This document shows positions 2,978 through 57,419 of a stretch of 64,000 nt of DNA, in pieces. The position numbers were made by a program, and so were the translations under genes. Within the stretch, counting starts at the first letter, position 1. Each line of letters opens with the position of its first letter. Under the pieces are notes generated by a model. The model was not told the origin of the DNA. It made no database searches and saw only the letters and a program-made list of their open reading frames with translations. The DNA comes from Acidobacteriota bacterium. GTDB lineage: Bacteria > Acidobacteriota > UBA4820 > DSQY01. The stretch covers positions 11,879-75,878 of the forward strand of contig JBBILR010000001.1 of the NCBI GenBank assembly GCA_037444825.1, in the 5' to 3' direction.

Positions 2978-3005
2978 GGCGGCCCCCTATTCCATCCCAA
3001 GCATT

Positions 3006-3374
3006 TTAACGAAGCCCGCAGGCCCTGTAAAGCCTTTCCACGTCCACGAGGCCCATCCCCTCGTCCACCCCCTCTCCCTGTCCCTCGGGTGGGACGGCGG
3101 AGGTGGCTTGGAGGGCCGCCCCGAGCCCGGGCAGGGCCAAGGGAAGCCCCTCCCGCTCCAGCACCACCAGGAGACGGGGAGGGGCGGTCCTTCCGAAGAA
3201 AAAGGAGGGGTCGGCCACCGGCACCGCCTCCCCCCCCACCACCAGGATCCCCAGGAGCCAGGAGGCCCCGCGGGGAAGGGGCAGGGGGGGCTCGAAGTCC
3301 CGAATCTCCCGCACCGCCTCGGCGGGGATGGCCCAGCGCCCCTCGCCGGTGTCCAGAATCACGACGCCGGGCAT
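3006..3374 (-). CDS. single-domain CheW-like protein (copy 1)
   Basis: MPGVVILDTGEGRWAIPAEAVREI...LPLPRGASWLLGILVVGGEAVPVADP...LLVVLEREGLPLALPGLGA aligns to the two CheW subdomain motifs. The start is fixed by residue count (M197 of the 3006..3962 ORF). It overlaps the upstream gene by 16 nt. Confidence 0.6.
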   Translation of the reverse strand: MPGVVILDTGEGRWAIPAEAVREIRDFEPPLPLPRGASWLLGILVVGGEAVPVADPSFFFGRTAPPRLLVVLEREGLPLALPGLGAALQATSAVPPEGQGEGVDEGMGLVDVERLYRACGLR

Positions 3375-7647: not shown

Positions 7648-8643
7648 ATGACCATGGACCTCTCGACCAGTTACATGGGCCTGAACCTTCGCAACCCGCT
7701 GGTGGCCTCCGCCAGCCCTCTCACCTCCGACCTGGACACCCTCAAGAACCTGGAGGACAAGGGGATCGCCGCCGTGGTCCTGGAGTCGGTCTTCGAGGAG
7801 CAGATCCGCAAGGAAGGGGAGGGACTGGACCACTTCCTCTCCTACGGGGCCGAGAGTTACGCCGAGGCCCTCTCCTACTTCCCGCCCCGGGACGACTTCT
7901 CCTACGGCCCCGACGAGGTGCTGGAGCACATCCGGCGGGCCAAGGCGGCCCTCTCCATCCCCGTCATCGCCAGCCTCAACGGCGTCTCGGTGGGCGGGTG
8001 GATGGACTACGCCCGCAAGATGCAGGAAGCCGGGGCCGACGCCATCGAGCTCAACGTCTACTACATCCCCACGGACCCCTCCATCTCCGGGGCGGAGGTG
8101 GAGCGGATGTACGAGGAGGACGTGAAGACGGTGAAGGCCGCCGTCACCATCCCCCTGGCGGTGAAGCTGAGCCCCTTCTTCAGCAACCTGGCCCACACGG
8201 CCAAGCGCCTGGACGAGGCGGGCGCCGACGCCCTGGTTCTCTTCAACCGCTTTTACCAGCCCGACATCGACCTGGAGACGCTGGAGGTGGTCCCCAACCT
8301 GGTCCTCTCCTCTCCCCACGAGATGCGCCTTCCCCTCCGGTGGGTGGCCATCCTCCACGGGCGGATCCGGGCGGACCTGGCGGCCACCAGCGGCATCCAT
8401 CGGGCCGAGGACGTCCTCAAGATGCTCATGGCTGGCGCCAACGTGACCATGATGGCCTCGGCGCTGCTCCTCCACGGCGTGGAGCGGGTGGCGGAAATCC
8501 TCCAGGGGATGCGGGCTTGGATGGAGGAGCGGGAGTACGTTTCCGTCCGCCAGATGATCGGCAGCCTGAGCCAGAAGTGCTGCCCCGAACCGGCGGCCTT
8601 CGAACGCGCCAACTACATGAAGACGCTCCAAAGTTACCGCTAG
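7648..8643 (+). CDS. dihydroorotate dehydrogenase-family (class 1 DHOD-like) TIM-barrel flavoprotein
   Basis: [53 protein letters not shown]... shows DHOD/DHPD-like TIM-barrel motifs. It is 331 aa. Confidence 0.75.
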
Positions 8644-8648
8644 CGGCA

Positions 8649-8671
8649 GGGAGGGGGGAGAGCCCCCTCCC
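8649..8671 (+). other. perfect 9-bp GC hairpin GGGAGGGGG-GAGAG-CCCCCTCCC immediately after the DHOD-like stop (no U-tract)
   Basis: Read directly from the sequence. Confidence 0.35.
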
Positions 8672-8743
8672 TCCGCCGGTGCCCCGGGAGATCCCCCTCC
8701 TTCCGGGTTCCTCCGAAGGGGAGGGGGATGGAGGGGTGGGTCC

Positions 8744-10018
8744 ATGCCGAACGAGACGGTCTTCGCCCTGAACGGGAAGGAGCAGCGGGAACTCCTGGAG
8801 CGCTTTCTCCGCTACATCGCCGTGGACACCCGCTCCAGCGAGACCTCCGAGACCTTCCCCTCCACGGAAGGGCAGTGGGACCTCCTGCGGATGCTGAGGG
8901 GCGAACTGGAAGCCCTCGGCCTGAGTGACGTGGATCTGGACGGCCACGGCTACCTCACGGCCACCCTACCTTCCAACCTGCCCCCAGGGCAAGCGGCCCC
9001 CACCGTGGGCTTCCTGGCCCACGTGGACACCTATCCCTCCACCCCGGGAAAGTGCGAGAACCCCCAGGTGATCGAACGCTACGACGGCGGGGACATCCCC
9101 CTGCGGGGAGCCCCGGGGAGGTTTCTCCGGGCCTCCGAGAACCCGTTGCTCCTGAAATGCGTGGGAGATACGGTGATCACCACCGACGGCACCACCCTGT
9201 TGGGGGCCGACGACAAGGCCGGCGTGGCCGAGATCATGACGGGCCTCGCCTGGCTCCTGAGCCACCCCGAGGTCCCCCACGGGAGGATCCGGGTGGCCTT
9301 CACCCCCGACGAGGAGACGGGGAAGGGCATGCGCTTCTTCGACGTGGGGACGTTCGGGGCGGACGTGGCCTACACCTTCGACGGGTCGGTCCTCGGCGAA
9401 ATCGAGGTGGAGACCTTCCACGCCGATTCGGCCGCCATCACGGTGACAGGCGAGGACACCCACCCCGGCACCGCCAAAGGGCGCATGGTGAACGCCCTGA
9501 GGGCCGCCGCTGGGCTGATCCACCGCCTCCCCGAAGGGCACCTTCCCGAGACCACCGAAGGGCGGGAGTCCTTCCTGCACCCCTACGCCATCCAGGGGGA
9601 GGTGGGGAAGGTCACCGTCCAGGCGCTGGTGCGGGCCTTCACCCGGGAGGAGCTCCGGCAGCGGGAGGAAGACCTCTTGAGGATCGCCAAGGAGACGGAG
9701 TCGGCCTTTCCGGGCTGTTCGGTGGAGGTGCGCTTCGAGGAGTCCTACCGGAACATGAAGGAGATCCTGGACCGCCACCCTGTGGTGGTGGAGAAGGCGG
9801 TGGAGGCGGTCCGGCTCTCGGGGCTCGAACCGGTCCTCGGCGCCATCCGGGGCGGCACCGACGGGGCCCACCTCTGCTTCCGGGGCCTGCCCACCCCCAA
9901 CGTCTTCGCCGGGGGGGTGAACTTCCACGGCGTCACCGAGTGGGTGAGCCTGCGGTGGATGGCCAAGGCCGTGGAGACCTTCCTCCACCTCGCCCGCCTC
10001 TGGGGCCGGGGCGCCTGA
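8744..10018 (+). CDS. pepT: peptidase T (tripeptide aminopeptidase, M20B)
   Basis: MPNETVFALNGKEQRELLERFLRYIAVDTRSSE...GFLAHVDTYPS...LLGADDKAGVAEIM...VAFTPDEETG matches the PepT family. Confidence 0.9.
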   Translation: MPNETVFALNGKEQRELLERFLRYIAVDTRSSETSETFPSTEGQWDLLRMLRGELEALGLSDVDLDGHGYLTATLPSNLPPGQAAPTVGFLAHVDTYPSTPGKCENPQVIERYDGGDIPLRGAPGRFLRASENPLLLKCVGDTVITTDGTTLLGADDKAGVAEIMTGLAWLLSHPEVPHGRIRVAFTPDEETGKGMRFFDVGTFGADVAYTFDGSVLGEIEVETFHADSAAITVTGEDTHPGTAKGRMVNALRAAAGLIHRLPEGHLPETTEGRESFLHPYAIQGEVGKVTVQALVRAFTREELRQREEDLLRIAKETESAFPGCSVEVRFEESYRNMKEILDRHPVVVEKAVEAVRLSGLEPVLGAIRGGTDGAHLCFRGLPTPNVFAGGVNFHGVTEWVSLRWMAKAVETFLHLARLWGRGA

Positions 10019-11534: not shown

Positions 11535-12782
11535 TCAGCCTTCGTCGTCCAGACGGTGGACGCCGGAGGAGGAAGGGGAGGGGGAGCGGATGGGCTGGGA
11601 ATCGGAGGGCAGGAGATTCCGCACGCCCGATTCGGCGGGGGAAACGGGGTGGGCCCCCGAATCGGAGAGCCCCGGAGGGGCGGGCTCTTTTTTCCGAGCC
11701 GCCCGCCGGGCTCGGGCCAGCACCGTGAAGAGGTAGACGGCCAGGGCACTCCCCGCCGCGAAGAGGACCAGGAAAAGGGAAAGGGCCCCCCACTGGGGGC
11801 GGAAGGCCGGCGGGGGCTCCGCCGCCGCCCGGAGAAGGGCGTCCCGGACCACGTCCCTCAGGATCACCATGGAGAGCAGGGTGAGCAGGAGGCAGGCGGC
11901 GGAGGCGCGCAGGAAGGCGGAGGCTTTCACGGAGTTGATGCCCATGAGGGAGAGGACCAGCGCCGCGAGGCCGAAGAGGAGGCCCGCGGCCAACGCGGAG
12001 GTCCCCAGAAGGTTCCCCCCCATGGCGGCCCGGATTCCCTCGTCGGGCAGCGCCAGGAGCCACCAAGTCCCGGCGGCGAAGTTCACCAGCGTCGCCCCCG
12101 CGAACCAGGTGATGCCGCTACGGTACTGCCAGCGGCCCCGTTCGGGTTCCAGGGGGAGCCGCCGGGCTCCACGGATGGCCACCACCAGCCCCGTCAGGGC
12201 CACCGAGGCGAGGAAGAAGTGGAGGAAGCGGGGCAGGACGGTGAAGTCGGCGAGGTTGAACTGGAAGCCGCCGGGGTGGCTCAGGTACTTGGCGGGGAAG
12301 CGCTCCGGGTCGGAGAGGAGGGCGAAGAGGTTGGCCTGGGTGAAGCCGACGTAGCCCAGCCCCAGAAAGGCCCCCAGGGCGACCCCGGCGGCCCCCTTCC
12401 CCCCCTCTCGAAGGCGCCTCTCCAGAAAGTAGAGGAGGCCGTAGGCGGCCAGGAGCACGGGGATCACGAGCAAAACGGGCGTTCCCAGGAGGATGGAGGC
12501 CGTGTAGAAAAGGCGTCCGTAGAGGACCTGGACGAAGAGCAGGGGGGCCACACCGAAGAGAATGGCGAAGGCCGTGAGCGACGGAAGGTAGGAGGCGAGA
12601 AGGGCCGCCATTTCGCGGTGCTTTTCTTGCCCTTTGAAGAGGTAGACCGCGGTGAGGAAGGCCCCCCCCCAGACGGCGTTCATGAAGAGCAGGTGGAGGG
12701 TGAAGGTGGCGTACAGCAGCACCTTGACCAGCCAGAGGGGGCCGGGGACGGGAAGGTCGGGCGGGGCGGCGGGACCGATCAT
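11535..12782 (-). CDS. polytopic membrane protein, partner of the CydA-like subunit (CydB-position subunit, no clear CydB signature)
   Basis: MIGPAAPPDLPVPGPLWLVKVLLYATFTLHLLFMNAVWGGAFL... is 416 aa and very hydrophobic. Its ATG overlaps the upstream stop as ATGA (12779-12782). Confidence 0.6.
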   Translation of the reverse strand: MIGPAAPPDLPVPGPLWLVKVLLYATFTLHLLFMNAVWGGAFLTAVYLFKGQEKHREMAALLASYLPSLTAFAILFGVAPLLFVQVLYGRLFYTASILLGTPVLLVIPVLLAAYGLLYFLERRLREGGKGAAGVALGAFLGLGYVGFTQANLFALLSDPERFPAKYLSHPGGFQFNLADFTVLPRFLHFFLASVALTGLVVAIRGARRLPLEPERGRWQYRSGITWFAGATLVNFAAGTWWLLALPDEGIRAAMGGNLLGTSALAAGLLFGLAALVLSLMGINSVKASAFLRASAACLLLTLLSMVILRDVVRDALLRAAAEPPPAFRPQWGALSLFLVLFAAGSALAVYLFTVLARARRAARKKEPAPPGLSDSGAHPVSPAESGVRNLLPSDSQPIRSPSPSSSGVHRLDDEG

Positions 12783-14296
12783 GGCTTGCCCCTCCGGGAA
12801 ACCGTCGTGAGGTACTCCGCCAGCATTCTCCGTTCCTCGTCGGTGCCCGTCCAGGGGGGCATGGCCTCGCTCATGGCGTCCAGGGCGGTGAGGAGGTCGG
12901 AGGCCTCCTCCGCCGAGGAGGAGGCGAAGGCCGCCGAAAGGGGCCGGAAGGGGCCGTGGAGGGTGTGGCAGGCGGCGCACCGCCGGCGAAAGGCCTCTTC
13001 GCCGGTGGCGGAGGGCGTGGGGGCCGACCCTTGGAGAAGGAAGCGCGCCAGCGCGCGGGCCTCCCCGGCGTTGCCCGGAAACGGGGGCATGGGCCCCCGA
13101 AGGGCGTCGGCGTGGAGAACCAGGGCGGCCACGTACGGTTCTTCCAGACCCCGGAGGCGGGGCCTCAAGGCCCGGGGCCCGCCGTCGAGGCCGTGGCAGG
13201 GGCCGCAGGCTCTCAGAAAGAGCGCCCTGCCCGCCCGGGGGTCCTCGGGGGTCCAGGCTTTGCCTCCGTCGGCGGTGTAGGGGGAGGCGGCCAGCATCCC
13301 CTTGTCCCTCAAGACGCCGAGTTCCGGCAGGGAAACGTGGTTGCCGTACAGGTAGCCGGGGATGAGCCAGGGCTTGCGGAGGCCTTCCCGGCCCCACTCG
13401 AAGGAGGCCACCGCCAGAAAGGCGAAGAGGAAGAGGCCGATGGCGGACCCCCGGCCGAAGGTCCGGGGCCGCCGAAGCACCAGGAGGGGGGTGAGGACCG
13501 CGAGGTGGAGAAGGGCGGCCGCCAGCAGAAGGGCCGCGTGGAGGCTGGAGGGGGCGGCCGTGAGGATCGCCCGCCGGTCGGGCGGCAGGAACCGGTAGAA
13601 GGCGAAAATCGCCGGGGGTAGCAGGAGGGAGGCGGTCAGGACGAAGCCGGCGGCGGACCTCCCCACCTCCGCCTTGAGGACTCGGTCGGAGTCCCGGGAC
13701 ACGGCCAGCAGGGCGTAGGCTCCCCCCAACAGGAGGCAGAGAAGGGTTCTCACCGCCAGGGACGGGAGAAAGTTGGCGTTGAAGACCGCCGGCAGGAGCG
13801 CCCCCGTCTCCAGCCAGCGGCCGGGGGTCAGCTGAAAGGCCAGGATGGCGTCGATGGCCACCAGGGAGAGAAAGGCCGAGGCGAAGTAGATCCAGCCCAC
13901 GGCGAGGTGGCTCCGGCGGGGAAGGACCTCCCACCCCTTCACGTAGACCAGGATGGAGGCGATCTCCACCAGGAAGAAGACCCACTCCACCGCCCAGACC
14001 CAGACGAAGGTCCGGATGAGGGCGAATGTCCCCTCCGGGCTGATGAGGCCGATGACGAACCAGATCCCCACCCCCGTGACCGCCCCCACGGTCAGGGTGA
14101 GAAGGGCGAAGAACCGGGAGAAGCGGACCAGGAACTCCCGGAGGGCGGGGTCGCCCAGGCGGTGGGCGCGGTGTTCCCCCAGGACGAGGAAGAGGCCGCC
14201 CCCGATGGCGAACTGGGAGACGAAGACGTGCAGGACCGCCACGGCGGCGATGATCCACCGAACGCCGACGGCCGGGTCCCAGACGGGAAAGGTCAC
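12779..14296 (-). CDS. cytochrome bd-type quinol oxidase subunit I-like membrane domain (truncated CydA) fused to a C-terminal di-haem c-type cytochrome domain
   Basis: MTFPVWDPAVGVRWIIAAVAVLHVFVSQFAIGGGLFLVL resembles the CydA N-terminus. The C-terminal soluble region carries two CxxCH motifs (CGPCHGLDG, CAACHTLHG). It starts at GTG with GGGAGGG 4 nt upstream. Confidence 0.65.
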   Translation of the reverse strand: MTFPVWDPAVGVRWIIAAVAVLHVFVSQFAIGGGLFLVLGEHRAHRLGDPALREFLVRFSRFFALLTLTVGAVTGVGIWFVIGLISPEGTFALIRTFVWVWAVEWVFFLVEIASILVYVKGWEVLPRRSHLAVGWIYFASAFLSLVAIDAILAFQLTPGRWLETGALLPAVFNANFLPSLAVRTLLCLLLGGAYALLAVSRDSDRVLKAEVGRSAAGFVLTASLLLPPAIFAFYRFLPPDRRAILTAAPSSLHAALLLAAALLHLAVLTPLLVLRRPRTFGRGSAIGLFLFAFLAVASFEWGREGLRKPWLIPGYLYGNHVSLPELGVLRDKGMLAASPYTADGGKAWTPEDPRAGRALFLRACGPCHGLDGGPRALRPRLRGLEEPYVAALVLHADALRGPMPPFPGNAGEARALARFLLQGSAPTPSATGEEAFRRRCAACHTLHGPFRPLSAAFASSSAEEASDLLTALDAMSEAMPPWTGTDEERRMLAEYLTTVSRRGKP

Positions 14297-21261: not shown

Positions 21262-24135
21262 CTAGGACCCGGCTTCGGTGAGGTAGCCGACGGCGGCGTC
21301 CTGCTCCCCGTCCATGACCACCTCCAGCCGAAGGCCCGGCGCCGCCTGGTCCAGGTCCACGACCTTGAGGACCTCCTCCAGGTAGGCGTACTCCGGCAGC
21401 AGGGCGCTCAGGGCGTTGGGGCTCTTCGAGAAGAACTCCTCCCGGAAAACCACCCCCTCGTCGTCCGGGTAGAGGGCGAGGTACCGGATCCGCGATTCCA
21501 CCAGGTCTTGGAAGAAGTGGGTGCCGAAGGAAAGGTCGGGGACGTAGTCCCCCTTGCGGCGGGCCACCTCCACCAGCATGGCGGTGTGGCTGATGTCCGA
21601 GTAGGTGACGCGAACCCCCAGGAGGATGTCCCCCCGGCTGCCCCAGCGGCCCGGCCCGATGAGCACGAAAGAGCGTGGAGGCAGGAGGGCGTTGAGCCGC
21701 CCCACCGCCTCCCCCACGGCCAGCATGTCCGTCTCGGAGGAGAGCCGGGCGTAGGCCGGCCCGTCCACGTACACGACGTAGCGAAGGTCCCGGATCTGCG
21801 CGGTGGTGACGTACTTCTTCGCCGTGAAGAGGACCCGTTCCGGCGGCAGGGACTCGGGGAGGGGGACCCGGACCTCGCTCCCGGCGCTGCTCTGCGGGCG
21901 GCACTGCAGCATGTACAGGTCCTTCCCGTCGTGGGCGAACTCCACGTCCACCGGCGTCCCCATGGCCTTCTGCAGGACCTCCAGGACCCGGCGCATCTGC
22001 TGGAGAAAGGGGGTCCCCTCGAAGAGCCCGGCGAAGGTGATCACGTACTCCGAGGGGGTGAGGGCGAGAAACCGCCCCGCGGGCCTCCGCAGCATTCCGT
22101 CGGAATGGACCGAGACCACCAGCTCCAGCAGGGGGAACTCCTCCCCGGCCTCCTGGAGGAGGGCCTCGAAGGGGACCGACTCGAAGCGGCCCGTCTCCAT
22201 GTTGATGGCGTCCACGAAGCGCTGGGCGTACCGGATGGCCTGCTTCACGTCGGCGTTGACCCTCAGGCCCGGCTGGCCCGGGCTCACCAGCGTCGGGTAG
22301 TCGTCGCCCACCCGGTCCACCGCCCGGGTGCCCAGCCCCGCCACGATGCGGATCACCCCGTCCTCCCGCCGGAGCCGCGGCGACCACCGGAACTCGTTGT
22401 GGCTGAAGGCCACCCCGGCGAAGGCCGGGAGGAAGTAGCGCCCCACCCGTGTCCCCACCACCCGCTGGATGAGGACCCCCATCTCCTCCATGAAATCCAA
22501 AAGGCCCCTCTCCCGCCGGTATTGGATGGGGTCCGGGCCCAGGATGGAGGCGTAGACCTCGGCGATGGCGTCTTCCAGGGCGCCGAGGCGCTCCTCCTCG
22601 GAGCCCTGGTTGGCCAGGAAGAGGCTCCGGTACTTTCCCGAGAAGGCCGTGCCCTCGCTGTCCTCCAGGAGGCTGGACGAGCGGACGATGAGCGGCCCCT
22701 CCCCCAGGTCCTGGAGGGCCACCCGGAGCTGCCGTGAAAGGTCCGGCGGGAAGAAGGAGTGTTTGAAGACCTGCTCCAGGTAGGGGTAGCTCCGGCGCAC
22801 CTCCTGGGGGGGGCTGTACTTGAAGGACTGGGTGTCCTCCAGGGAGTTGTACTTCACGAAGTCGAAGAGGCCGTCGGAGGCGAGGAACCAGGCCTTGGGG
22901 ACGCGGATCCCCTCCAGCAGGGGGTCCCCCTTCCCCTCGGCTCTCAGGATCTGCTCGGCCAGGAGCAACCCCGAGGCCTTCCCGCCCAGCTTGCCCGCGC
23001 ACTTGGGGGGACCCACCACCCGCCTCAGGAGGGCGGCGAAGACGGGGATGTCCATGTACTTTTTGGCGACGGCGATGAAGGGCAGGCGGTCGGTGAGGAA
23101 GCGGCGGGTGAGGGCCACCCGGAGGTTCAGGGCGTCGGAGGGGGAGAGGGCCTCGTCCCCCTGGCGGGAGGCGCGGTCGATCCTCTCCACGATGTCGGCG
23201 ATGTCGGAGAGGGTGAGGTCCCGCTGCTCGGTGGCCAGCGCCAGGAACCCCACCCGGTCCTGCCGGATCCACTTCTTCACCAGGGCGGTGATCTCGTCGT
23301 GGGGCAGGATGACCGGGGCCACGGCCAACAGGTCCTCGAAGACCCCCTCGAAGGCCGAGACGTCCCGCTTGCGCAGGGGCTGGTTGGAGCCCCGGGACTC
23401 CCGCTCCCGCTCGGCGGCGCTGCCTGGGTCGAAGCGCTCGATGAGGCGGTGGATTCCCGGCGCCCCCAGGTTGGACAGGTGGTTCATGAACTTCCTTAGG
23501 AGCCGCTTCCAGAGGTTGACGTCGGTCTCCCTCAAAAGGTCCAGGATGACCTGCCACTCCGGGCGGGCGGCCTGCCCCGCACCGGGGCCGCCGGGCGGCG
23601 CCTCGGCCATGCGGGCCACCTTCAGGGCCGCCACCCGAAGGAGCTGTTTTTCCTCCAGGAGGAAGGGCCGGTCCTTCCGGAGGGTCTCCGGCAGGGAGAG
23701 GTAGGCCGCCTCCAGGGAGCCGTACCCCCCGGAGGAGAGGGGGATGGGCTCCCGCAGGTTCCACGGCGTCTCCTGGAAGTCCGGCGGGGCGAAGACCTCC
23801 CGCCCCAGGGTCAGCCGGACGCGGAGCCGCTCCGGAAACCGAAAGCCCGAGGGGAGCAGGTCCACCACCGCCCTGGCGGCGGCCCGAGGATCCTGCGGGG
23901 GCTCGTCGGTCACCGCCGAGAGCCGGCTGAGGCACAGAAGCTCCTTGCTTCCCGCCACCGCCTCGGGAAGCGCCTTCCGATCGTCCCTGTCCGCTCTGGC
24001 CAACGTATTCCTCCTCCATCCATCATGCCACGGCCCGGTGGCGGAAGGAAAAGCCCCCCTTGCCCCGGCCGCGGCGGGGGTTCCGCCGGCGGGAGGGGTG
24101 AGGTAGGATGCCTTCAGAAGCGAAAGCGGCGTCAT
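21262..24135 (-). CDS. large multidomain protein with central PEP/pyruvate-binding (PPDK_N-type ATP-grasp) domain; function unknown; start uncertain
   Basis: KCAGKLGGKASGLLLAEQ plus a downstream ATP-grasp-like region matches the PEP synthase / PPDK N-terminal domain family. About 450 aa N-terminal and about 250 aa C-terminal have no recognisable signature. The first in-frame ATG (24135) faces the divergent gene's start at 24154, so the true start may be a GTG/TTG further downstream. Confidence 0.6.
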   Translation of the reverse strand: MTPLSLLKASYLTPPAGGTPAAAGARGAFPSATGPWHDGWRRNTLARADRDDRKALPEAVAGSKELLCLSRLSAVTDEPPQDPRAAARAVVDLLPSGFRFPERLRVRLTLGREVFAPPDFQETPWNLREPIPLSSGGYGSLEAAYLSLPETLRKDRPFLLEEKQLLRVAALKVARMAEAPPGGPGAGQAARPEWQVILDLLRETDVNLWKRLLRKFMNHLSNLGAPGIHRLIERFDPGSAAERERESRGSNQPLRKRDVSAFEGVFEDLLAVAPVILPHDEITALVKKWIRQDRVGFLALATEQRDLTLSDIADIVERIDRASRQGDEALSPSDALNLRVALTRRFLTDRLPFIAVAKKYMDIPVFAALLRRVVGPPKCAGKLGGKASGLLLAEQILRAEGKGDPLLEGIRVPKAWFLASDGLFDFVKYNSLEDTQSFKYSPPQEVRRSYPYLEQVFKHSFFPPDLSRQLRVALQDLGEGPLIVRSSSLLEDSEGTAFSGKYRSLFLANQGSEEERLGALEDAIAEVYASILGPDPIQYRRERGLLDFMEEMGVLIQRVVGTRVGRYFLPAFAGVAFSHNEFRWSPRLRREDGVIRIVAGLGTRAVDRVGDDYPTLVSPGQPGLRVNADVKQAIRYAQRFVDAINMETGRFESVPFEALLQEAGEEFPLLELVVSVHSDGMLRRPAGRFLALTPSEYVITFAGLFEGTPFLQQMRRVLEVLQKAMGTPVDVEFAHDGKDLYMLQCRPQSSAGSEVRVPLPESLPPERVLFTAKKYVTTAQIRDLRYVVYVDGPAYARLSSETDMLAVGEAVGRLNALLPPRSFVLIGPGRWGSRGDILLGVRVTYSDISHTAMLVEVARRKGDYVPDLSFGTHFFQDLVESRIRYLALYPDDEGVVFREEFFSKSPNALSALLPEYAYLEEVLKVVDLDQAAPGLRLEVVMDGEQDAAVGYLTEAGS

Positions 24136-24153
24136 CCTGCCGGGGAGGTTCCC

Positions 24154-24777
24154 ATGGGGGCGGTGGAGCCGGAAGGGGAAAGCCGGGGGTTCTGGGGAAA
24201 GGTCTGGGAAAGGTTTTGGTGGGTCTTCGCCCTCGCTCTCGTCGGCGGCGTGGCGGGGGTGTACAAGCTTTTCGGCGGCGTGGCGCTCCTGAAGCTCTGG
24301 GCCTCCCTCTTCGCCGGCCTGGGCGCGGCGGTCATGGTCTACGGCGGGCGGGCTTGGAGGCTCGCCTCCCGAAGCCCGGAGTGGTTCCCGGCGCAGGCGC
24401 GGGTGCTCCGTTCCGAGGTGAGGACCGAAAGGAACTCCTCCTTCAGCCGCGACGGGATCAACCCCAGCTACCAGACCGTCTCCCACTACCCGGAGGTGGA
24501 GTACGAGTACGAGGTGGAGGGAGAGAAGAGAAGGTCCGATAGGGTCCTCCTCGTGCGGGTGAACTACTCCGCCGAGGAGGCGGCCGCCACGGTGGCGAAG
24601 TATCCCACAGGAGCCGCCGTTACCGCCTGGTACGACCCCCGGGATCCCGACCGGGTGGTCTTGGAGCCGGGTCTTCGGGGGGCGAGGTCCAAGTACGCCA
24701 TCCCGCTGCTCGTCGGCCTCGTTTTCATGCTCTTTGGCATTTCCACGTGGGTGGTGCTGGCGTTGCTGGGGCGTTGA
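24154..24777 (+). CDS. DUF3592-family membrane protein
   Basis: MGAVEPEGESRGFWGKVWERFWWVFALALVGG...RVNYSAEEAAATVAKYPTGAAVTAWYDPRDPDRVVLEP...LLVGLVFMLFGISTWVV has two TM segments flanking a DUF3592-like soluble domain. GGGAGG lies 6 nt upstream. Confidence 0.6.
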   Translation: MGAVEPEGESRGFWGKVWERFWWVFALALVGGVAGVYKLFGGVALLKLWASLFAGLGAAVMVYGGRAWRLASRSPEWFPAQARVLRSEVRTERNSSFSRDGINPSYQTVSHYPEVEYEYEVEGEKRRSDRVLLVRVNYSAEEAAATVAKYPTGAAVTAWYDPRDPDRVVLEPGLRGARSKYAIPLLVGLVFMLFGISTWVVLALLGR

Positions 24778-24793: not shown

Positions 24794-26314
24794 TCACCGA
24801 GCCCCCGTTTTTTCCTCGGCGAAAACCTCCGCCTGGAAGGTGGAGAGCCGCGCCCCCCGCTTCCAGCACTCCGCCTCCAATCCGGCCTTTTCGCAGAGGC
24901 GGCCGAGCAGCTCCTCCCGGTTCCACCCCTGCTCGGGGGCCACCTGGGGGAGAAAGACCGCGCTTCGCGCCCCCTTTTCGAGGAGCACGCCGTCGCGGCC
25001 CACCACCACCGCCCCCGGTCCCGAAACGGGCGCGAAGGGGGTGAGGGCGGAAATCTCGATCTCCAAGGACGAAAGTTCCCAGCTCTTCACCGGGGGAAAG
25101 CGGGGGTCGTGGAGGGCCGCCTGAACGGCCATGCGGGCCACGGTGAGGGCGAGGGGGGTGTCGGGGACCATCCGGCCGATGCATCCGCGAAGTTCCCCCT
25201 TTTCCTTGAGGGTGACGAAGGCGCCCCGGGGGGCGCGCAGGGCGGGGGAGTCCGGCCGCGGCAGGGGGACCGTGTCCGTGAGAAAAAGCCGCTCCAGCAC
25301 CCGGCGGGCCAGGGCGAGGAGGGCCCTACGCTCGGCGGCGGAGAGGGGGGGCGCCTGCTCCGGGGGGGCGGGGCGGGAGAGGGCCGAAAGGTCGGGCGGC
25401 CCCTCCTCGGCGGTGAAGACGACGGCGCCGTACCCCACCACCCGGTCCTCCTCTCCGAAGACCGTGTCCCCGGAGTTGGCGTAGGACACCACCACTCCCC
25501 TCCGGGCCCCCAGGGCCCTCAGGGCGCTGAGCAGGACCAGGAGGGGGCCCCGCCCGCAGGCGCAGGTGGCGAGTGACGGCCTTCCCCGCCGCTCCTCCCG
25601 CTCGGTGACCGTCCGGAAGAGGACGGGGTCCAGGGCCGCCGCGGCCTCCAGCGTCTTCCGGTCGGTCTCCACCGCCTCGCCGTACGGCGGGTAGTGGGAG
25701 AGGTCCGACGAGGCCACGAGCAGCGCCTTCCGGCCGCGCAGCTTCTCCGCCAAAACCTCGCCGAGGCGGCGGCAGAGGGCGCCGTCGTCGGTCCCCACGA
25801 CGGCGGTGAGAACCCTTGCCCCCGGGAAAAGGACCTGGACGAAGGGGAGGGGGACCTCCTCCGAATGCTCCCGGCGGTGGGCCTCGGGGCGGTAGGCGAA
25901 GGCGGGGTCGGCCGACCGAAGGGCCCGGGCCAGCCCTTCGTCGGCCGGGATCGTCCCCAGCGGGGTGCGGTAGGCCCGTCCCCCGAAGACCGAGGCTCCC
26001 GGAAAGGGGTCCACGGTGTGGTTCGTGGCCAGGATCACCACCGTGTCGTACTCCTGGCCCTGGGCCTGGCGAAAGGCGTCGGCCAGGATCTGGCCGGAAA
26101 AGACGTACCCGGCGTGGGGAACCAGGAGGCCCAGGGGCCTCGGGCCGCGCGGGGGACGGGCCTCCTCCAGAAAGGCCCGGACGGCCTTTTCGAGGCGGAC
26201 GCCGTCTTCAGGGTAGAACGAGCCGGCCGCGGCGGCCTCGCGCACGGCTTCCTCCCCCGCCGGGACCAGGAGGCAGGGCACGAGAAGGGCCGCCCACCAG
26301 GCCGCGCCCCTCAT
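24794..26314 (-). CDS. AmmeMemoRadiSam system fusion protein: Memo-like (protein B) N-terminal domain plus AMMECR1 (protein A) C-terminal domain, with N-terminal Sec-type signal peptide
   Basis: MRGAAWWAALLVPCLLVPAGEEA looks like a signal peptide. Then GSFYPEDGVRLEKAVRAFLEE...LLVPHAGYVFSGQILADAF is Memo. The C-terminal half ERRALLALARRVLER...GAFVTLKEKGELRGCIGRM is AMMECR1. The ATG overlaps the amrS stop (ATGA at 26311-26314). Confidence 0.8.
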   Translation of the reverse strand: MRGAAWWAALLVPCLLVPAGEEAVREAAAAGSFYPEDGVRLEKAVRAFLEEARPPRGPRPLGLLVPHAGYVFSGQILADAFRQAQGQEYDTVVILATNHTVDPFPGASVFGGRAYRTPLGTIPADEGLARALRSADPAFAYRPEAHRREHSEEVPLPFVQVLFPGARVLTAVVGTDDGALCRRLGEVLAEKLRGRKALLVASSDLSHYPPYGEAVETDRKTLEAAAALDPVLFRTVTEREERRGRPSLATCACGRGPLLVLLSALRALGARRGVVVSYANSGDTVFGEEDRVVGYGAVVFTAEEGPPDLSALSRPAPPEQAPPLSAAERRALLALARRVLERLFLTDTVPLPRPDSPALRAPRGAFVTLKEKGELRGCIGRMVPDTPLALTVARMAVQAALHDPRFPPVKSWELSSLEIEISALTPFAPVSGPGAVVVGRDGVLLEKGARSAVFLPQVAPEQGWNREELLGRLCEKAGLEAECWKRGARLSTFQAEVFAEEKTGAR

Positions 26315-27519
26315 TGCCAGACCCCCCGCACCGGTTTCCCGCAAAAGGCGCAGGCGCCGTCCTGGAGGTGGTTGGCGGTGACGAAGAAGCCCTGGCGTTC
26401 GATCACCGCCTTGCCGCAGGAGGGGCAGTAGGTGTGGTTCCCCGGGTGGCCCGGGACGTTGCCCACGTACGGGTACCTCAGGCCGTGCCTCAAGGCGGTC
26501 TCCCGGGCCCTTTCCAGCGTGGCCACCGGCGTGGGGGGAAGGTGGAGGAGCTGGAAGTCCGGGTGGAAGCGGGTGAAGTGGAGGGGGACGTCGGGTCCCA
26601 CCTCCCCCGCCACCCACCGGCAGAGCTCGTCCAGGAGGGCGGGATCGTCGTTCAGCGTGGGGACCACGAGGTTCACGATCTCCAGGTGCCGCCCGCCCCG
26701 GGCCACCGCGCGGATGGTCCTCAAGACCGGCTCCAGCTCCGCCCGGGAGACCTTTCGGTAGAACTCCGGCGAGAAGCCCTTGAGGTCCACCTTGATGGCG
26801 CCGAGGACCTCGATCATCTCCCGCAGGGGGGCCTCCTGCATGAAACCGCAGGAAACGAGGACAGCCCGGAGGCCCCTTTTCCGGGCCTCCCGCGCCGCGT
26901 CCAGAAGGTACTCGGCGAAGACCGTGGGCTCGTTGTAGGTGAAGGCGATGACGGGGGTCCCCACCTGCCGGGCCCTCTCCGCCAGGGCGGCGGGGGGGAG
27001 GTAGTCGGCCGGGAGGTCCTCCGGGGAGGCCTGGGAGATCTCCCAGTTCTGGCAGAAGCGGCAGGCGAGGGGACAGCCGGCCGTGCCGAGGGAGAAGGCC
27101 TGGGAGCCCGGAAGGAAATGGTAGAAGGGCTTCTTCTCGATGGGGTCCACGTGCAGGGCCACGGGGCGGCCGTAGACGAGGCTCCGAAGCTCGCCGCGCA
27201 CGTTGGCGCGGGCGCGGCACCGGCCCCGGCTCCCCTCCTCGATGACGCAGGCGTGGGCGCAGAGAAGGCACTTCACCGGCCGCTTCCGGTGGCCCTTTTC
27301 GGGCTTTCCGGCGGGGGCCTTCTCGTGGCAGGCGGAGCAGGAAAGGGAGGGGGAGCCCTCGGGGAGCCAGAAACGGGCGGGGGGGGCGGTCTTCAGCAGT
27401 TCCGCCAGGTAGGCCCCCTCCGCCGCCGCCCGGAGCGGTTTCGGAAGAAGGACGGCGCCCGTCCCCCAGAGCCCCAGCCGCGCGAGGAAATCCCGCCGGG
27501 GAAGGTGCTCACCGCCCAT
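26311..27519 (-). CDS. AmmeMemoRadiSam system radical SAM enzyme with about 47-aa N-terminal twin-arginine (Tat) signal-like extension
   Basis: MGGEHLPRRDFLARLGLWGTGAVLLPKPLRAAAEG is RRxFLx plus an h-region plus AxA. The AmrS core follows: VKCLLCAHACVIEEGSRGRCRARANVRGEL, radical SAM CPLACRFCQNWE, and C-terminal CPSCGKAV...CAFCGKP. CTGGAGGG RBS lies 6 nt upstream of the ATG at 27519. Confidence 0.8.
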   Translation of the reverse strand: MGGEHLPRRDFLARLGLWGTGAVLLPKPLRAAAEGAYLAELLKTAPPARFWLPEGSPSLSCSACHEKAPAGKPEKGHRKRPVKCLLCAHACVIEEGSRGRCRARANVRGELRSLVYGRPVALHVDPIEKKPFYHFLPGSQAFSLGTAGCPLACRFCQNWEISQASPEDLPADYLPPAALAERARQVGTPVIAFTYNEPTVFAEYLLDAAREARKRGLRAVLVSCGFMQEAPLREMIEVLGAIKVDLKGFSPEFYRKVSRAELEPVLRTIRAVARGGRHLEIVNLVVPTLNDDPALLDELCRWVAGEVGPDVPLHFTRFHPDFQLLHLPPTPVATLERARETALRHGLRYPYVGNVPGHPGNHTYCPSCGKAVIERQGFFVTANHLQDGACAFCGKPVRGVWQ

Positions 27520-27610
27520 GGATGCCCTCCAGGGAAACGGTAGGTTCGGGAAGGCACGAAGTCAAAGGCCCTCCCGCCCCCGCGGCGCGGCCTCGGAAAG
27601 CCCGCGCCGC

Positions 27611-28078
27611 TCACCGCGGGCGGACGCGCATGGTGCCGTCCTGGGCGGTGAGGACCTCCACCTCCTGGCCCGGCGTGAAGGTCTCCCCCGGGGCCTGTGC
27701 CTGGACGATGGCGTAGGTGATCCCCGACTCCAAACGGACGACGATCTCCAGGGCGGGGTACCGGGCGCCGTCCCGCTCCATGGCGTTTCCCGCCAGGGAC
27801 CCGAGGATCGCTCCGGCCACGGTGGCCAGGGCCTTTCCGCTGCCCTGGCCCACCGCCGATCCGGCGGTGGCGCCGGCCACCATGCCGGCGAAGCCCCCGA
27901 AGCCCGAGGGGGTGCCCTCGATGGAGACGGCGCGGACCCCCTCCACCACGCCCCGCTGGACGGTCATGGGGAGGCGGGCCTCCCGCGGGGAGTAGACCCG
28001 CCCCGAGGGCCCCGCGGCGCAGGCCAGGGACAGGAGGGTCACGAGAACGAGAACGGCGAAGGGTCCGTTGGGCTTCAT
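27611..28078 (-). CDS. outer-membrane lipoprotein with glycine-zipper (Slp / 17-kDa antigen-like) domain
   Basis: MKPNGPFAVLVLVTLLSLACAAG has a lipobox. GFGGFAGMVAGATAGSAVGQGSGKALATVAGAILGSLAGNA is a glycine zipper. Confidence 0.75.
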   Translation of the reverse strand: MKPNGPFAVLVLVTLLSLACAAGPSGRVYSPREARLPMTVQRGVVEGVRAVSIEGTPSGFGGFAGMVAGATAGSAVGQGSGKALATVAGAILGSLAGNAMERDGARYPALEIVVRLESGITYAIVQAQAPGETFTPGQEVEVLTAQDGTMRVRPR

Positions 28079-53885: not shown

Positions 53886-56410
53886 AACGACTCCCCCGGG
53901 GTCTTCGCACCTCCTTGCTCCTCCTCCTGGCCGGAACGGCGGCCGGCATGGCCGTGGGCCTCTACCTCACCCGCGACATCCCCGAGGTGGAGAGCCTCCA
54001 GTTCGCCACGCCGCGGCAGATGACCCGCATCTACACCCGGGACGGCCGGGTCCTCCAGGAGTACGGTCCCGAAAAGCGGGTGGTGGTCCGCTTCGAGGAG
54101 GTCTCCCCCAACTTCTTCAAGGCCCTCCTGGCCGTGGAGGACGCCGATTTCTACCGGCACCACGGCTTTTCGGTGAAGGCGATCTTTCGGGCGGTCCTCA
54201 CCGACCTCCTCCACCGCAAAGCCCGGCAAGGGGGGAGCACCCTCACCCAGCAGCTGGCCCGGAAGTACTTTCTCACCGACGAGAAGACGCTGGTGCGGAA
54301 GATCCGGGAACTGATCCTGGCGGTGAACATCGAATCCCGCTTCACCAAACAGCAGATCCTGGAGATGTACGCCAACAAGGTCTGCTTCGGGGGCGCCTAC
54401 TACGGCGTGGAGGCCAGCGCCCGGCACTTCTTCAACAAACGGGCCAAGGACCTGACCATCCCCGAGGCGGCCCTGCTGGCGGGGCTCGTGCAAAGGCCCT
54501 CCTACTACTCTCCGCGGAGCCACCCCGAGCGGGCCCTCCAGCGCCGGAACGTGGTCCTGGCCCGCATGCGGGACACGGGGGCCATCACCCCCGCCCAGTA
54601 CGAGGCCTTTTCCAAGGCGCCCCTGGGCCTCTCCGAGTCGGTGGTGGAGGTCCAGCGGCTGGGGGATTACGTGGCGGAGCAGGTCCGCCAGTACCTCGAG
54701 GAAAAGTACGGAGGGGAGCAGCTCTACGAGAGGGGCCTTCAGGTCCACACCACCATCGACCCCGCCCTCCAAGCCTTGGCGGAAAAGGCCGTCAGGGAAG
54801 GCCTCCACGAGTACGCCCGCCGGCGCGGCTACAAGGGGCCCCAGCGGGGCGAGAAGGCCCCTCCCGAGTACGACGGGCCGGACCTCCAGGCGGGGATGCG
54901 GGTCTGGGCCACCGTCACCGCCTCCGCGCCGGCCCTCCTCACCCTGCGGCTGGGAAGCCGCCGGGTGGAGGTGGGTCCCGAGGGCTGGAAATGGACCGGG
55001 ATCCAGCACCCCGAGCGGGTCTTTCAGCCGGGAGACCGGGTCCTCCTCGACATTCTGGACACGGGCCCCCCGGTGAAGGCGGAGGTGGAGCAGGCCCCCA
55101 TCGCCCAGGGGGCCCTGGTGGCCGTGAACCCCCACACCGGCGAGGTCCTGGCCATGGTGGGGGGGTACAACTTCGCCTCCTCCATGTTCGACCGGGCGCT
55201 CCAGGCCCGGCGGCAGACCGGCTCCGCCGTGAAGCCCCTCGTCTACGCCACAGCCCTCACGGAGGGAAAGACCCTGGCGGACACGGTGGTGGACACCCCC
55301 TTCCTTTTCCTCACCGGGCGGGAGCGGGCGGAACGTCTCTGCGAGGAAGGCTACATCCCCCGGGACTTCGACAAGGATTTTCTGGGCAAGATCACCTACC
55401 GGCGGGCCCTGGAGCACTCCGTGAACATCGCCGCCGTCCAGGTCCTGGACGAGACCGGCTACCGGCCGGTCATGGAAAACATGCGGCTCCTGGGCATCAC
55501 CACCGACCTGAAGCCCTACCCTTCCATGGCCCTGGGGGCCTTCGAGATCAGCCTCTTCGAACTGGCCGGGGCCTTCACGGCCTTCGACAACGGCGGGATC
55601 TACGTCCAGCCGCGCTTCATCCAGCGCATCTCCGACGCCGACGGCAACGTGCTGGAGGAGGTCCGGTCGGTGAGCCGCATGGTCTGGGACCCCCGGGTGG
55701 CCTTCCTCATGGTCCAGGCCATGCGGGGGGTCGTCCAGAGGGGCACCGCCGCCTCCCTGGCGGACATGGCGGGGAACTTCGCGGGAAAGACCGGAACCAC
55801 CAACAACTACACCGACTCCTGGTTCATGGGCTTCAACCCCGCCCTCCTCTGCGGCGTCTGGGCGGGGCGGGACGACCACAAGCCCCTGGGAAACCTGGAG
55901 ACGGGCTCCCGGGTGGCCCTTCCCATCTGGCGACGCTTCATGGAGGAGGCCACCCGGGGGCAGGAGAGCCTGGACTGGACCGTCCCCGAGGGGGTGACGG
56001 CGGTGGAGGTGGACGCCGCCACCGGAAAGCGCGCCTCCCCGGGGGTTCCCTGCTCCGAGGTGCGAACCGAGTACTTTCTGGAGGGCACCGAGCCGCCCCC
56101 GTGCACCGAGGCCGACCACTTCCTCCTGCGCCTGCCCCACTTCCTCCAGTCCTACCCGGTGACGCCGGACCTGGCCCTGGAGATGCCGGCCGCCGACGCG
56201 GCCGCCTGGGCCTCCCGCTACCCTGGTACCGCCGCCTACAACGGGGGGACCCGGTTGATGGTCACCTGGGGGGGGACTACATTCCCCGTGAGGCTGGTGC
56301 TGGCCCCGCCCCGGGAGGGCCCCGTCCCCCAGGCGGTGATGCCGGGCCTGCCCCACGAGGGAGACGTGGCCTGTGGCGCCCGAACGAAGTACATCCACGA
56401 AGACCGCTGA
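53837..56410 (+). CDS. mrcA: penicillin-binding protein 1A (bifunctional glycosyltransferase/transpeptidase)
   Basis: GT51 motifs EDADFYRHHG, GGSTLTQQLAR and RKIRELILA. The TP domain has SAVKP and KTGTT. An alternative GTG start at 53882 would make a GTGA overlap with the upstream stop. Confidence 0.9.
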   Translation: MRKRKLPELLQAVLLVKRLPRGLRTSLLLLLAGTAAGMAVGLYLTRDIPEVESLQFATPRQMTRIYTRDGRVLQEYGPEKRVVVRFEEVSPNFFKALLAVEDADFYRHHGFSVKAIFRAVLTDLLHRKARQGGSTLTQQLARKYFLTDEKTLVRKIRELILAVNIESRFTKQQILEMYANKVCFGGAYYGVEASARHFFNKRAKDLTIPEAALLAGLVQRPSYYSPRSHPERALQRRNVVLARMRDTGAITPAQYEAFSKAPLGLSESVVEVQRLGDYVAEQVRQYLEEKYGGEQLYERGLQVHTTIDPALQALAEKAVREGLHEYARRRGYKGPQRGEKAPPEYDGPDLQAGMRVWATVTASAPALLTLRLGSRRVEVGPEGWKWTGIQHPERVFQPGDRVLLDILDTGPPVKAEVEQAPIAQGALVAVNPHTGEVLAMVGGYNFASSMFDRALQARRQTGSAVKPLVYATALTEGKTLADTVVDTPFLFLTGRERAERLCEEGYIPRDFDKDFLGKITYRRALEHSVNIAAVQVLDETGYRPVMENMRLLGITTDLKPYPSMALGAFEISLFELAGAFTAFDNGGIYVQPRFIQRISDADGNVLEEVRSVSRMVWDPRVAFLMVQAMRGVVQRGTAASLADMAGNFAGKTGTTNNYTDSWFMGFNPALLCGVWAGRDDHKPLGNLETGSRVALPIWRRFMEEATRGQESLDWTVPEGVTAVEVDAATGKRASPGVPCSEVRTEYFLEGTEPPPCTEADHFLLRLPHFLQSYPVTPDLALEMPAADAAAWASRYPGTAAYNGGTRLMVTWGGTTFPVRLVLAPPREGPVPQAVMPGLPHEGDVACGARTKYIHEDR

Positions 56411-57419
56411 GCCCGCCTCCAACGCCGTCCTCTGGCGCCCCCTGGAAGGGGGGCGGGTGGTCTGCGACCTCTGCGCCCACCGGTGCCGGATCCTCCCCGG
56501 GAAGGCCGGCGTCTGCCGGGTTCGGGTGAACCGGGAGGGGAGGCTCTGGAGCCTGGTGCGGAACCGGCTCCTGGCCGGCCACGTGGATCCGGTGGAGAAG
56601 AAACCCTTCTTTCACTTTCTGCCGGGGAGCCTCTCCTACTCCATCGCCACGGCGGGGTGCAACTTCCGGTGCCGCTTCTGCCAGAACTTCACCCTGAGCC
56701 AGGCGGTGCGGGACGGGGGGGTGGTTCCGGGGCGCGAGGCGGACCCGGCGTCGGTGGTGGTGGCGGCCCTCTCCACGGGGTGCCGGAGCCTCGCCTACAC
56801 GTACACCGAGCCGACCATCTTCTTCGAAACCGCCGAGGAGGTGGGCCTTCTGGCGAGGGAACGGGGCCTGAAAAACCTCTTCGTGACCAACGGCTACCTC
56901 ACCCGGGAGGCGGCGGACCGCGCCCGGTCCTTCCTGGACGGGGCCAACGTGGACCTCAAGGGCTTCGACGACGGGCGGTACCGGAAGGTCTGCGGGGCCT
57001 CCCTGAAGGGGGTTCTGGAGGGGCTGGAGGCCCTCCTGTCGGCCTCGGTCTGGGTGGAGGTGACCACCCTCGTGGTCCCGGGCCTCAACGACTCGGAGGC
57101 GGAGCTCAGGGCCATCGCCCGCCACCTCCGCTCCCTCGGGGCCCACATCCCCTGGCACGTGAGCCGCTTCCACCCCGACTACCTCATGGAGGACCGGCGC
57201 CCCACCCCCCTGTCCACCCTGGAGCGGGCCTACGAGATCGGGAAGGAGGAGGGGCTCGCCTTCGTGTACCTCGGCAACGTGCCGGGCCACCGCGGGGAAA
57301 ACACCCCCTGCCCGAAGTGTGGGACAATGGTACTGGAGCGGGTGGGCTTCACGCTCCGGAAGGCCCCGCCCGGCGGACGGTGCGGCCGCTGCGGGAGCCC
57401 CATTCCGGGGGTTTTCTAA
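56373..57419 (+). CDS. AmmeMemoRadiSam system radical SAM enzyme, second paralog (no signal peptide)
   Basis: VLWRPLEGGRVVCDLCAHRCRILPGKAGVCRVRVNREGRLW...CNFRCRFCQNF...CPKCGTMV...CGRCGSP aligns along its whole length with the core of the 26311-27519 protein. GTG start, approximate. Confidence 0.8.
   Translation: MAPERSTSTKTAEPASNAVLWRPLEGGRVVCDLCAHRCRILPGKAGVCRVRVNREGRLWSLVRNRLLAGHVDPVEKKPFFHFLPGSLSYSIATAGCNFRCRFCQNFTLSQAVRDGGVVPGREADPASVVVAALSTGCRSLAYTYTEPTIFFETAEEVGLLARERGLKNLFVTNGYLTREAADRARSFLDGANVDLKGFDDGRYRKVCGASLKGVLEGLEALLSASVWVEVTTLVVPGLNDSEAELRAIARHLRSLGAHIPWHVSRFHPDYLMEDRRPTPLSTLERAYEIGKEEGLAFVYLGNVPGHRGENTPCPKCGTMVLERVGFTLRKAPPGGRCGRCGSPIPGVF

Follow-up and report, generated by a model that had tools for sequence, protein, structure and literature searches.

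AmmeMemoRadiSam systems bring together three protein families, AMMECR1 (protein A, TIGR04335), Memo (protein B, TIGR04336) and a radical S-adenosylmethionine (SAM) enzyme (AmrS, TIGR04337). What AMMECR1 and Memo do is a long-open question, their human homologues are linked to disease, and a role in RNA base modification has been proposed (PMC2034487). Radical SAM enzymes are treated as strictly cytoplasmic, SAM, the assembly of iron-sulfur (Fe-S) clusters and low-potential reductants all being found in that compartment. The stretch of 64,000 nucleotides analyzed here (contig JBBILR010000001.1 of an Acidobacteriota bacterium, G+C content about 70%; hereafter the window) contains a cassette of this kind, in which the gene for AmrS (26311..27519, minus strand) encodes a predicted twin-arginine translocation (Tat) signal, and the gene coupled to it (24794..26314, minus strand) a Memo-AMMECR1 fusion headed by a predicted Sec signal.

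The cassette resembles canonical AmmeMemoRadiSam systems in domain scores far above the family cutoffs, in the adjacency of the genes, and in the intact radical SAM and flanking Cys motifs. It differs from them in the predicted Tat signal and the CxxCH insert of the enzyme, and in the fusion of B to A behind a signal of Sec or lipoprotein type; many related loci add a spermidine-synthase-like membrane protein. The comparison with relatives makes it probable that both proteins are exported, AmrS folded via Tat and the fusion via Sec, and form an extracytoplasmic variant of the system. An earlier note, based on the letters of the window only, had raised the idea of an undescribed exported or periplasmic variant, and the comparative evidence supports it. 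No exported AmmeMemoRadiSam system, and no Tat-signal or periplasmic radical SAM enzyme, is described in the full-text literature searched; Burroughs et al. 2019 (JBC), reportedly the main comparative paper on Memo-AMMECR1 systems, lies outside that literature.

The coupled genes and their export signals

All cassette features are on the minus strand, and are given in window coordinates. AmrS is a long form of the enzyme (402 aa), matching TIGR04337 with 362.5 bits (cutoff 220) over residues 81-401 only, the first 80 residues falling outside the model, and PF04055 with 66.9 bits. The canonical N-terminal Cys motif C84-x2-C87-x3-C91...C101 (27217..27270), a candidate metal or cluster site, is invariant in long and short forms; the radical SAM cluster motif C149-x3-C153-x2-C156 (27052..27075) is invariant and resides inside the PF04055 match; the C-terminal CxxC...CxxC (C365, C368, C390 and C393; 26341..26427) falls in invariant columns. 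The partner protein, 506 aa long, matches TIGR04336 (protein B) at residues 25-300 with 223.6 bits (cutoff 26), and TIGR04335 (protein A) at residues 331-498 with 171.7 bits (cutoff 99). PF01875 and PF01871 score 170.5 and 178.7 bits, respectively, and in the Protein Data Bank (PDB) alignment MEMO1 covers residues 24-278, PH0010 residues 332-501. AmrS, protein B and protein A all score above the cutoffs, and their genes are contiguous, as AmmeMemoRadiSam membership entails. The AmrS open reading frame (ORF) starts at the first start codon past the upstream stop (ATG at 27519), 5 nt from a Shine-Dalgarno-like GGAGGG (27525..27530), and its TGA forms with the ATG of the fusion an ATGA overlap (26311..26314); in many related loci the junction is either a short gap or a gene overlap. 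The earlier note had correctly reported the good ribosome-binding site, the 4-bp coupling and the fusion of B to A, of which only the length (507 aa) needs correction.

Conserved positions were read from an alignment (A2) of 115 of the 120 best database matches of AmrS, which show 57-91% identity, are 400-430 aa long and cover the full query. For the fusion, the 120 best homologues (52-89% identity) were used. A scan of one genome per species gave at least 579 stretches encoding relatives; the best 80 loci (L001 to L080) were studied, and RR and CxxCH counts over these loci were tallied from the locus table.

The predicted Tat signal peptide spans residues 1-33 of AmrS (27421..27519), the N-terminus reading MGGEHLPRRDFLARLGLWGTGAVLLPKPLRAAA|EG. 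It is made up of an n-region with P-R-R-D-F-L at residues 7-12, a Gly-rich h-region of 12 uncharged residues (LGLWGTGAVLLP), a c-region including K27 and R30, and the putative AAA cleavage site A31-A32-A33. The twin-arginine codons (R8 and R9, 27493..27498) correspond to invariant columns: R8, R9, P46, C61, C64 and H65 are the same in 115 out of 115 homologues, and A45, A48, R49, W51 and H77 are at least 90% conserved. The 120 best matches are all long forms, nearly all beginning with S/T-R-R-x-F-L and a Gly/Ala-rich hydrophobic stretch. In the 115 aligned proteins the motif is mostly S/T-R-R-x-F-L, the median position of RR is 8, and 100 proteins have at least 13 uncharged residues after it; by eye, many distant relatives have no clear AxA site after the h-region. 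Over the 80 loci, the RR motif is found in about 68, CxxCH in 51. A match to RR in a single sequence is weak evidence, because a loose RR-hydrophobic pattern occurs in 4 of the 37 window proteins tested; specificity comes from the invariance of the pair throughout the family. Mean Kyte-Doolittle hydropathy is about 1.4 for the h-region of AmrS vs. 2.3 for the signal of the fusion, and a weaker, Gly-rich h-region is the usual difference between Tat and Sec signals.

The residues peculiar to the long form were located by alignment (A1) to a short-form AmrS paralogue of cytoplasmic type (348 aa; 56373..57419, plus strand; 42% identity by tblastn), which lies outside the cassette and served as internal comparison. 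The paralogue has neither signal nor insert, and no Memo or AMMECR1 gene nearby. Relative to it, the long form has two additions, a leader of about 44 aa (signal and linker) and an internal insert of about 28 aa, not the single N-terminal block of about 47 aa that the earlier note described, when it rightly listed the twin-arginine motif, the h-region and the AxA site. Leader and insert are separated by AP.ARYW, which in the alignment is the normal N-terminal strand of the short forms (EA.FYEKL). In the AlphaFold2 model of AmrS, with a mean predicted local distance difference test score (pLDDT) of 88.4 and a core above 90, helix 36-44 and strand 51-53 pack on the core with high confidence; pLDDT is 53-63 over residues 1-30. 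As the extension is conserved as protein across phyla (S/T-R-R-x-F-L, AP.ARYW, CxxCH), its interpretation as an untranslated leader, envisaged in the earlier note, fails.

The gene for the paralogue overlaps by 38 nt the end of a PBP1A gene (53837-56410), is followed by ExbD-like (by eye) and TonB genes, and is an orphan copy within 64 kb. In the long form, a GTG codon (V82, 27274-27276) lies two codons 5' of the canonical Cys motif, roughly where the signal-less enzyme of locus L077 begins; an internal start at this codon could in principle produce a second, cytoplasmic isoform of AmrS.

The fusion starts with a predicted Sec signal peptide, of the type cleaved by signal peptidase I (SPase I), at residues 1-19 (26258..26314; MRGAAWWAALLVPCLLVPA|GEEA), called from hydrophobicity and homologues. 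The layout is M-R-G, then AAWWAALLVPCLLV, then V-P-A|G, with a hydrophobic maximum of 2.81 (10-aa Kyte-Doolittle window), and the Memo domain begins at residue 24-25. Nearly all of the 120 best homologues start with a signal or a lipoprotein signal, many of these ending in Cys. At the locus level, an adjacent Memo match that is complete at its N-terminus is present in 60 of the 80 loci, and in 58 of these the Memo domain comes after a signal-peptide-like segment, often ending in Cys. This figure, along with the RR pair invariant in 115 homologues, bears out the earlier proposal of export signals on both components.

The CxxCH insert

The insert (residues 52-80, 27280..27366) is located between the N-terminal strand (ARFW) and the canonical Cys motif, and is gapped in the paralogue in A1. 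The earlier note had seen an additional Cys pair lacking in the paralogue, and had overlooked that the pair, C61-S-A-C64-H65 (27325..27339), is a CxxCH of haem c type. CxxCH is the motif for covalent attachment of haem c; the three invariant residues are a candidate attachment site, H77 (27289-27291) a candidate distal ligand. The two residues between the Cys are mostly AA, GA, SA or AS in the 115 homologues, and are cytochrome c-like. In 81 homologues the CH pair stands 19 aa from the canonical Cys, and a His is found 7 residues before this Cys in 106, 9 residues before it in 69. The insert has a pLDDT of about 59-67 in the AlphaFold2 model, low in comparison with the core, as expected for a cofactor-dependent loop; the model does not separate a haem from a Zn or Fe-S site.

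The window proteins, about 17,000 aa taken together, contain only three CxxCH motifs, and the two outside AmrS reside in a dihaem cytochrome c confirmed by Pfam. The organism must accordingly mature c-type cytochromes, with a maturation system encoded elsewhere in the genome. The dihaem protein (12779-14296, minus strand) has an unusual architecture: it is a membrane protein in which two c-type domains (PF13442; CGPCH at residue 364, CAACH at residue 440) are fused to an N-terminal part that resembles subunit I of cytochrome bd (PF01654, partial match).

Genes for ResB (PF05140) and CcsA (PF01578), which together make up the System II cytochrome c synthase, are found directly 5' of the AmrS gene, on the same strand, in seven Chloroflexi loci (L050:204-2340, L051:1016-3058, L052:3769-5792, L053:3240-5679, L055:5827-7766 and L059:4946-6915; L057:3567-4340 shows the CcsA gene only). 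The distance to AmrS ranges from an 11-nt overlap in L050 to gaps of 3 nt in L055 and 14 nt in L051 and L059; L053 and L057 have wider gaps, and in L052 one ORF separates the genes. AmrS is the sole CxxCH ORF in these operons. Chloroflexi variants of the insert feature a third Cys (C-x2-C-H-x10-Y-C-H-x2-H). In L055 (Thermoflexales) two Tat/CxxCH radical SAM copies (1937-3229 and 7770-9062) flank ResB-CcsA and a spermidine-synthase-like membrane gene, the latter on the minus strand. A CcmF-like ORF (1188-3152, minus strand) lies nearby in L067, as judged by eye and by a weak tblastn match to CcsA. Multihaem cytochromes do not recur near the cassette, being found in 2 of the 80 loci only.

Covalent binding of haem c by the CxxCH insert of AmrS is, on the motif, its conservation and the Chloroflexi operons, about an even bet. 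Weighing against it, neither ccm nor ccs genes (ResB and CcsA included) are found within the 64-kb window, and the whole CxxCH insert is missing in some Tat-form relatives (L025, L038, L040, L042, L047-49 and others), which means that haem is not essential for the exported form. Moreover, haem c is normally attached to unfolded apoproteins exported by Sec, and CxxCH on a Tat passenger is unusual. Predicted Tat signals and haem c are combined in one protein in split-Soret cytochromes c (PMC4429474).

Alternatively, the CxxCH...H(xH) array may bind Zn or an Fe-S cluster, through Cys2His2 (Cys3His in Chloroflexi), and be filled before the protein leaves the cytoplasm via Tat, a reading to be taken seriously at somewhat less than an even chance. 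Tat passengers normally acquire their cofactors in the cytoplasm, the insert holds two to four His (H65 included) at fixed spacing and adjoins the Cys-rich N-terminal motif, and the third Cys in Chloroflexi variants suits a Cys/His metal site. Such a site would not explain, however, why all homologues have a His right behind the second Cys, as is the hallmark of haem c sites, and why the intervening residues look like those of cytochromes c; neighbouring Cys and His rarely ligate one metal ion, and there would be no reason for the operon linkage to ResB-CcsA.

Distribution and neighbouring genes

The recurrent unit, a radical SAM gene followed on the same strand by a Memo-AMMECR1 fusion, is found in most of the 80 loci. 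Carriers are Acidobacteriota, Syntrophales, Desulfobacteraceae, Fibrobacteraceae, Ignavibacteria (Ignavibacteriaceae), Melioribacteraceae, Calditrichaeota, KSB1, Latescibacterota, Eisenbacteria, Anaeromyxobacter and Chloroflexi; relatives are found also in Thermoanaerobaculia, including a metagenome-assembled genome (MAG) of Thermoanaerobaculum aquaticum, and in Aminicenantes. The nearest relative of the window cassette is L001, from an Acidobacteriota MAG (88% identity). Judged by these homologies, the cassette is a member of a large clade spread over many anaerobic phyla, and no peculiarity of one genome. The search of other genomes for Tat-AmrS, advised in the earlier note, thus uncovered a clade of which that note was unaware. 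A phmmer search of the N-terminal 83 aa of AmrS against a library of 1.84 billion representative sequences returned one weak match (E 7.7e-5), and is of no use for clade size. The window encodes also pyruvate:ferredoxin oxidoreductase, a class II ribonucleotide reductase and, by eye, Pta- and AckA-like proteins, a set which fits an anaerobic lifestyle.

In 48 of the 80 loci (L004:10893-13064, L009:7943-10156, L063:9086-11275, L073:4288-6405 and 44 others) the cassette comes with a gene for a polytopic membrane protein, about 720 aa long, whose central domain is spermidine-synthase-like (PF01564); this gene is absent from the 64-kb window. The gene is mostly located just 3' of the fusion, in some loci upstream or on the opposite strand; in those Aminicenantes loci that lack Memo, it comes right after the gene for the Tat-form enzyme. 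In the encoded protein, GGG(F/I)EG takes the place of the usual GGGDG motif. A crude positive-inside count places the domain in the periplasm in 29 of 40 proteins, a hint that it may bear on SAM-derived chemistry outside the cytoplasm.

A DUF362 gene (PF04015) precedes an insert-less Tat-form enzyme in L063, L064, L066, L069, L071, L075 and L079. Of these seven loci L075 alone has a Memo-AMMECR1 match, and the group looks like a different exported sub-system.

At the 5' side of the window cassette, 91 bp from the AmrS gene, resides a gene for a glycine-zipper lipoprotein (27611..28078, minus strand; PF05433, 30.2 bits; lipobox LSLAC). The earlier note had placed it downstream; it is upstream, and the only homologue adjacent to a cassette among the 80 loci is that in L001, the closest relative, so that the lipoprotein is probably a neighbour and no functional part of the cassette. 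At the other side, a DUF3592 gene (24025-24777, plus strand; 51.6 bits) ends 17 bp from the stop of the fusion gene in convergent orientation, which indicates that the cassette ends its transcription unit. The DUF3592 ORF overlaps the first 150 or so codons of a 1074-aa PPDK_N ORF (21262-24486, minus strand), whose GTG start at 24486 is therefore probably set too far upstream. The PPDK_N protein, DUF3592, the glycine-zipper lipoprotein and carAB were considered as parts of the cassette and rejected, as their adjacency to it is not conserved elsewhere.

Site of action and comparison with known systems

Gene anatomy, family membership, family-wide signals and CxxCH, synteny and the Chloroflexi ResB-CcsA linkage are established here; actual export, haem attachment, SAM supply and substrate we infer, along the following lines. 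AmrS would fold and gain its Fe-S clusters in the cytoplasm, where it may also bind SAM, and would leave it folded through Tat by means of the S/T-R-R-x-F-L signal. In this genome AAA|E is the probable cleavage site; relatives in which no clear site is apparent by eye could keep the signal as a tether. The translationally coupled fusion would be exported unfolded by Sec and fold outside the cytoplasm, as a predicted SPase I substrate here, as a lipoprotein-like product in the many relatives whose hydrophobic segment ends in Cys. The three domains might then act jointly on an envelope or periplasmic substrate. The insert would most likely gain a covalent haem c from the cytochrome c maturation system, and through this haem electrons could reach the enzyme in a compartment that lacks both ferredoxin and flavodoxin.

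The boldest form of the proposal, in which these would be the first radical SAM enzymes working outside the cytoplasm, exported by Tat with their Fe-S clusters and acting there with a periplasmic haem c and an exported Memo-AMMECR1 on an envelope substrate, is put forward tentatively. The haem, attached in Chloroflexi by a dedicated ResB-CcsA pair, would accept electrons from periplasmic carriers; SAM might be exported bound to the enzyme, or be handled by the spermidine-synthase-like membrane protein.

Several data weigh against export, or against activity outside the cytoplasm. SAM and low-potential reductants are, to our knowledge, not known to be available in the periplasm. No tat genes were recognised within the 64-kb window, where translations were inspected and part of the genes Pfam-scanned. 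The TIGR01409 (TAT_signal) model matches AmrS residues 8-31 with 13.7 bits only, below the cutoff of 16.7 (E 0.062), and the uncharged stretch of the window protein is just 12 residues long. The model is not among the 25 families listed in an NCBIfam scan of the 115 whole proteins of A2, a listing that yields no count of Tat matches for the family. In two Nitrospirota loci, L073 (8001-10584) and L077 (3669-6368), the radical SAM enzyme (MPKTVQCELC...) has no signal and its Memo-AMMECR1 partner one of lipoprotein type, so the two proteins need not always share a compartment. Finally, the radical SAM enzymes of L061, L072 and L080 (Omnitrophota, Elusimicrobia and one unclassified genome) begin with a Sec-like signal in place of a Tat signal (e.g. 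MKKSLLLLILLLSVLFPAIGA|DQ), which is hard to reconcile with Fe-S insertion in the cytoplasm.

Some of these observations would be accommodated if AmrS acted on the cytoplasmic side, on the precursor of the Memo-AMMECR1 protein or on another exported client, the Tat-like N-terminus serving for recruitment to the membrane or translocon, or as an anchor. SAM and reductants are cytoplasmic, the pairing in L073 and L077 is of the expected kind, the fold of AmrS is closest to that of pyruvate formate-lyase (PFL) activating enzyme (PFL-AE), which acts on a protein, and the lack of an evident AxA site in many relatives suits an anchor. The HXS system offers a parallel, its periplasmic effector being matured by radical SAM enzymes of the cytoplasm (PMC13128918). 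We nonetheless regard action on the cytoplasmic side as unlikely. The h-regions are short, rich in Gly and Ala, and too weak for a stable transmembrane helix; a Tat signal or signal-anchor with a positive n-region would anyway face the catalytic domain outward, and CxxCH with its linkage to ResB-CcsA makes sense outside the cytoplasm only. An invariant RR in the S/T-R-R-x-F-L context is not known to have a role other than Tat targeting.

A vestigial Tat-like signal, kept as a NarG-like binding site for a chaperone of cofactor insertion in a cytoplasmic protein, is very improbable. Such remnants are generally known from cytoplasm-facing Fe-S and molybdo-enzymes, and the sub-cutoff TIGR01409 score would agree with one; here, in contrast, all 115 homologues retain the RR pair, 100 of them have a proper h-region, the partner protein carries a predicted export signal of its own, and no gene for a chaperone of the redox enzyme maturation protein type is conserved in the loci. 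That the start codon is mis-called, and the real AmrS begins near V82 as a normal cytoplasmic enzyme, is hardly credible: this GTG does lie two codons before the canonical Cys motif, and L077 begins about there (MPKTVQC), but homologues from several phyla, at 57-91% overall identity, share the extension at the protein level and have invariant residues in it, ATG 27519 is first in the ORF with GGAGGG 5 nt upstream, and helix 36-44 and strand 51-53 are modelled on the core.

If export of both proteins is accepted as the probable reading, the strictly cytoplasmic view of radical SAM enzymes is challenged by a large clade of wide phylogenetic range, in which the Tat signal is conserved, the partner exported and a haem c motif present, and the supply of SAM and electrons becomes a question of its own. 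It also constrains the function of AMMECR1 and Memo: the RNA base modification role cannot apply to a version located outside the cytoplasm, for which a lipid, a small molecule or a protein would be a likelier substrate. Relatives are found in lineages with cultured members (Anaeromyxobacter, Syntrophus, Thermoanaerobaculum).

AmrS itself has no solved structure. The best PDB fold match is PFL-AE (3cb8; E 3e-14, TM-score 0.79 normalised to target), and PFLA, NrdG and related NCBIfam models match weakly. Identity is about 17%, the scores are far below the cutoffs of those families and, unlike glycyl-radical activases, AmrS has extra N- and C-terminal Cys motifs and an export signal, and no glycyl-radical enzyme as partner. 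With Tat-exported Fe-S enzymes, such as hydrogenase small subunits and periplasmic molybdoenzymes, it shares S/T-R-R-x-F-L on a protein which needs cytoplasmic Fe-S insertion; the RRDFL core is identical in E. coli CueO, and no radical SAM enzyme is known to have been described as a Tat substrate, the literature searched showing none. Split-Soret cytochrome c, which also holds an Fe-S centre, is unrelated in fold and function, the likeness being limited to cofactor and export logic. It features, as AmrS does, a predicted twin-arginine signal and CxxCH haem c sites in one polypeptide (PMC4429474). Cytoplasmic radical SAM maturases, as anaerobic sulfatase-maturing enzymes and HxsB/HxsC, are similarly coupled genetically to an exported partner (PMC13128918). 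These maturases are signal-less and act before export, an arrangement approached only by L073 and L077, whereas in the cassette described here the enzyme itself bears the export signal.

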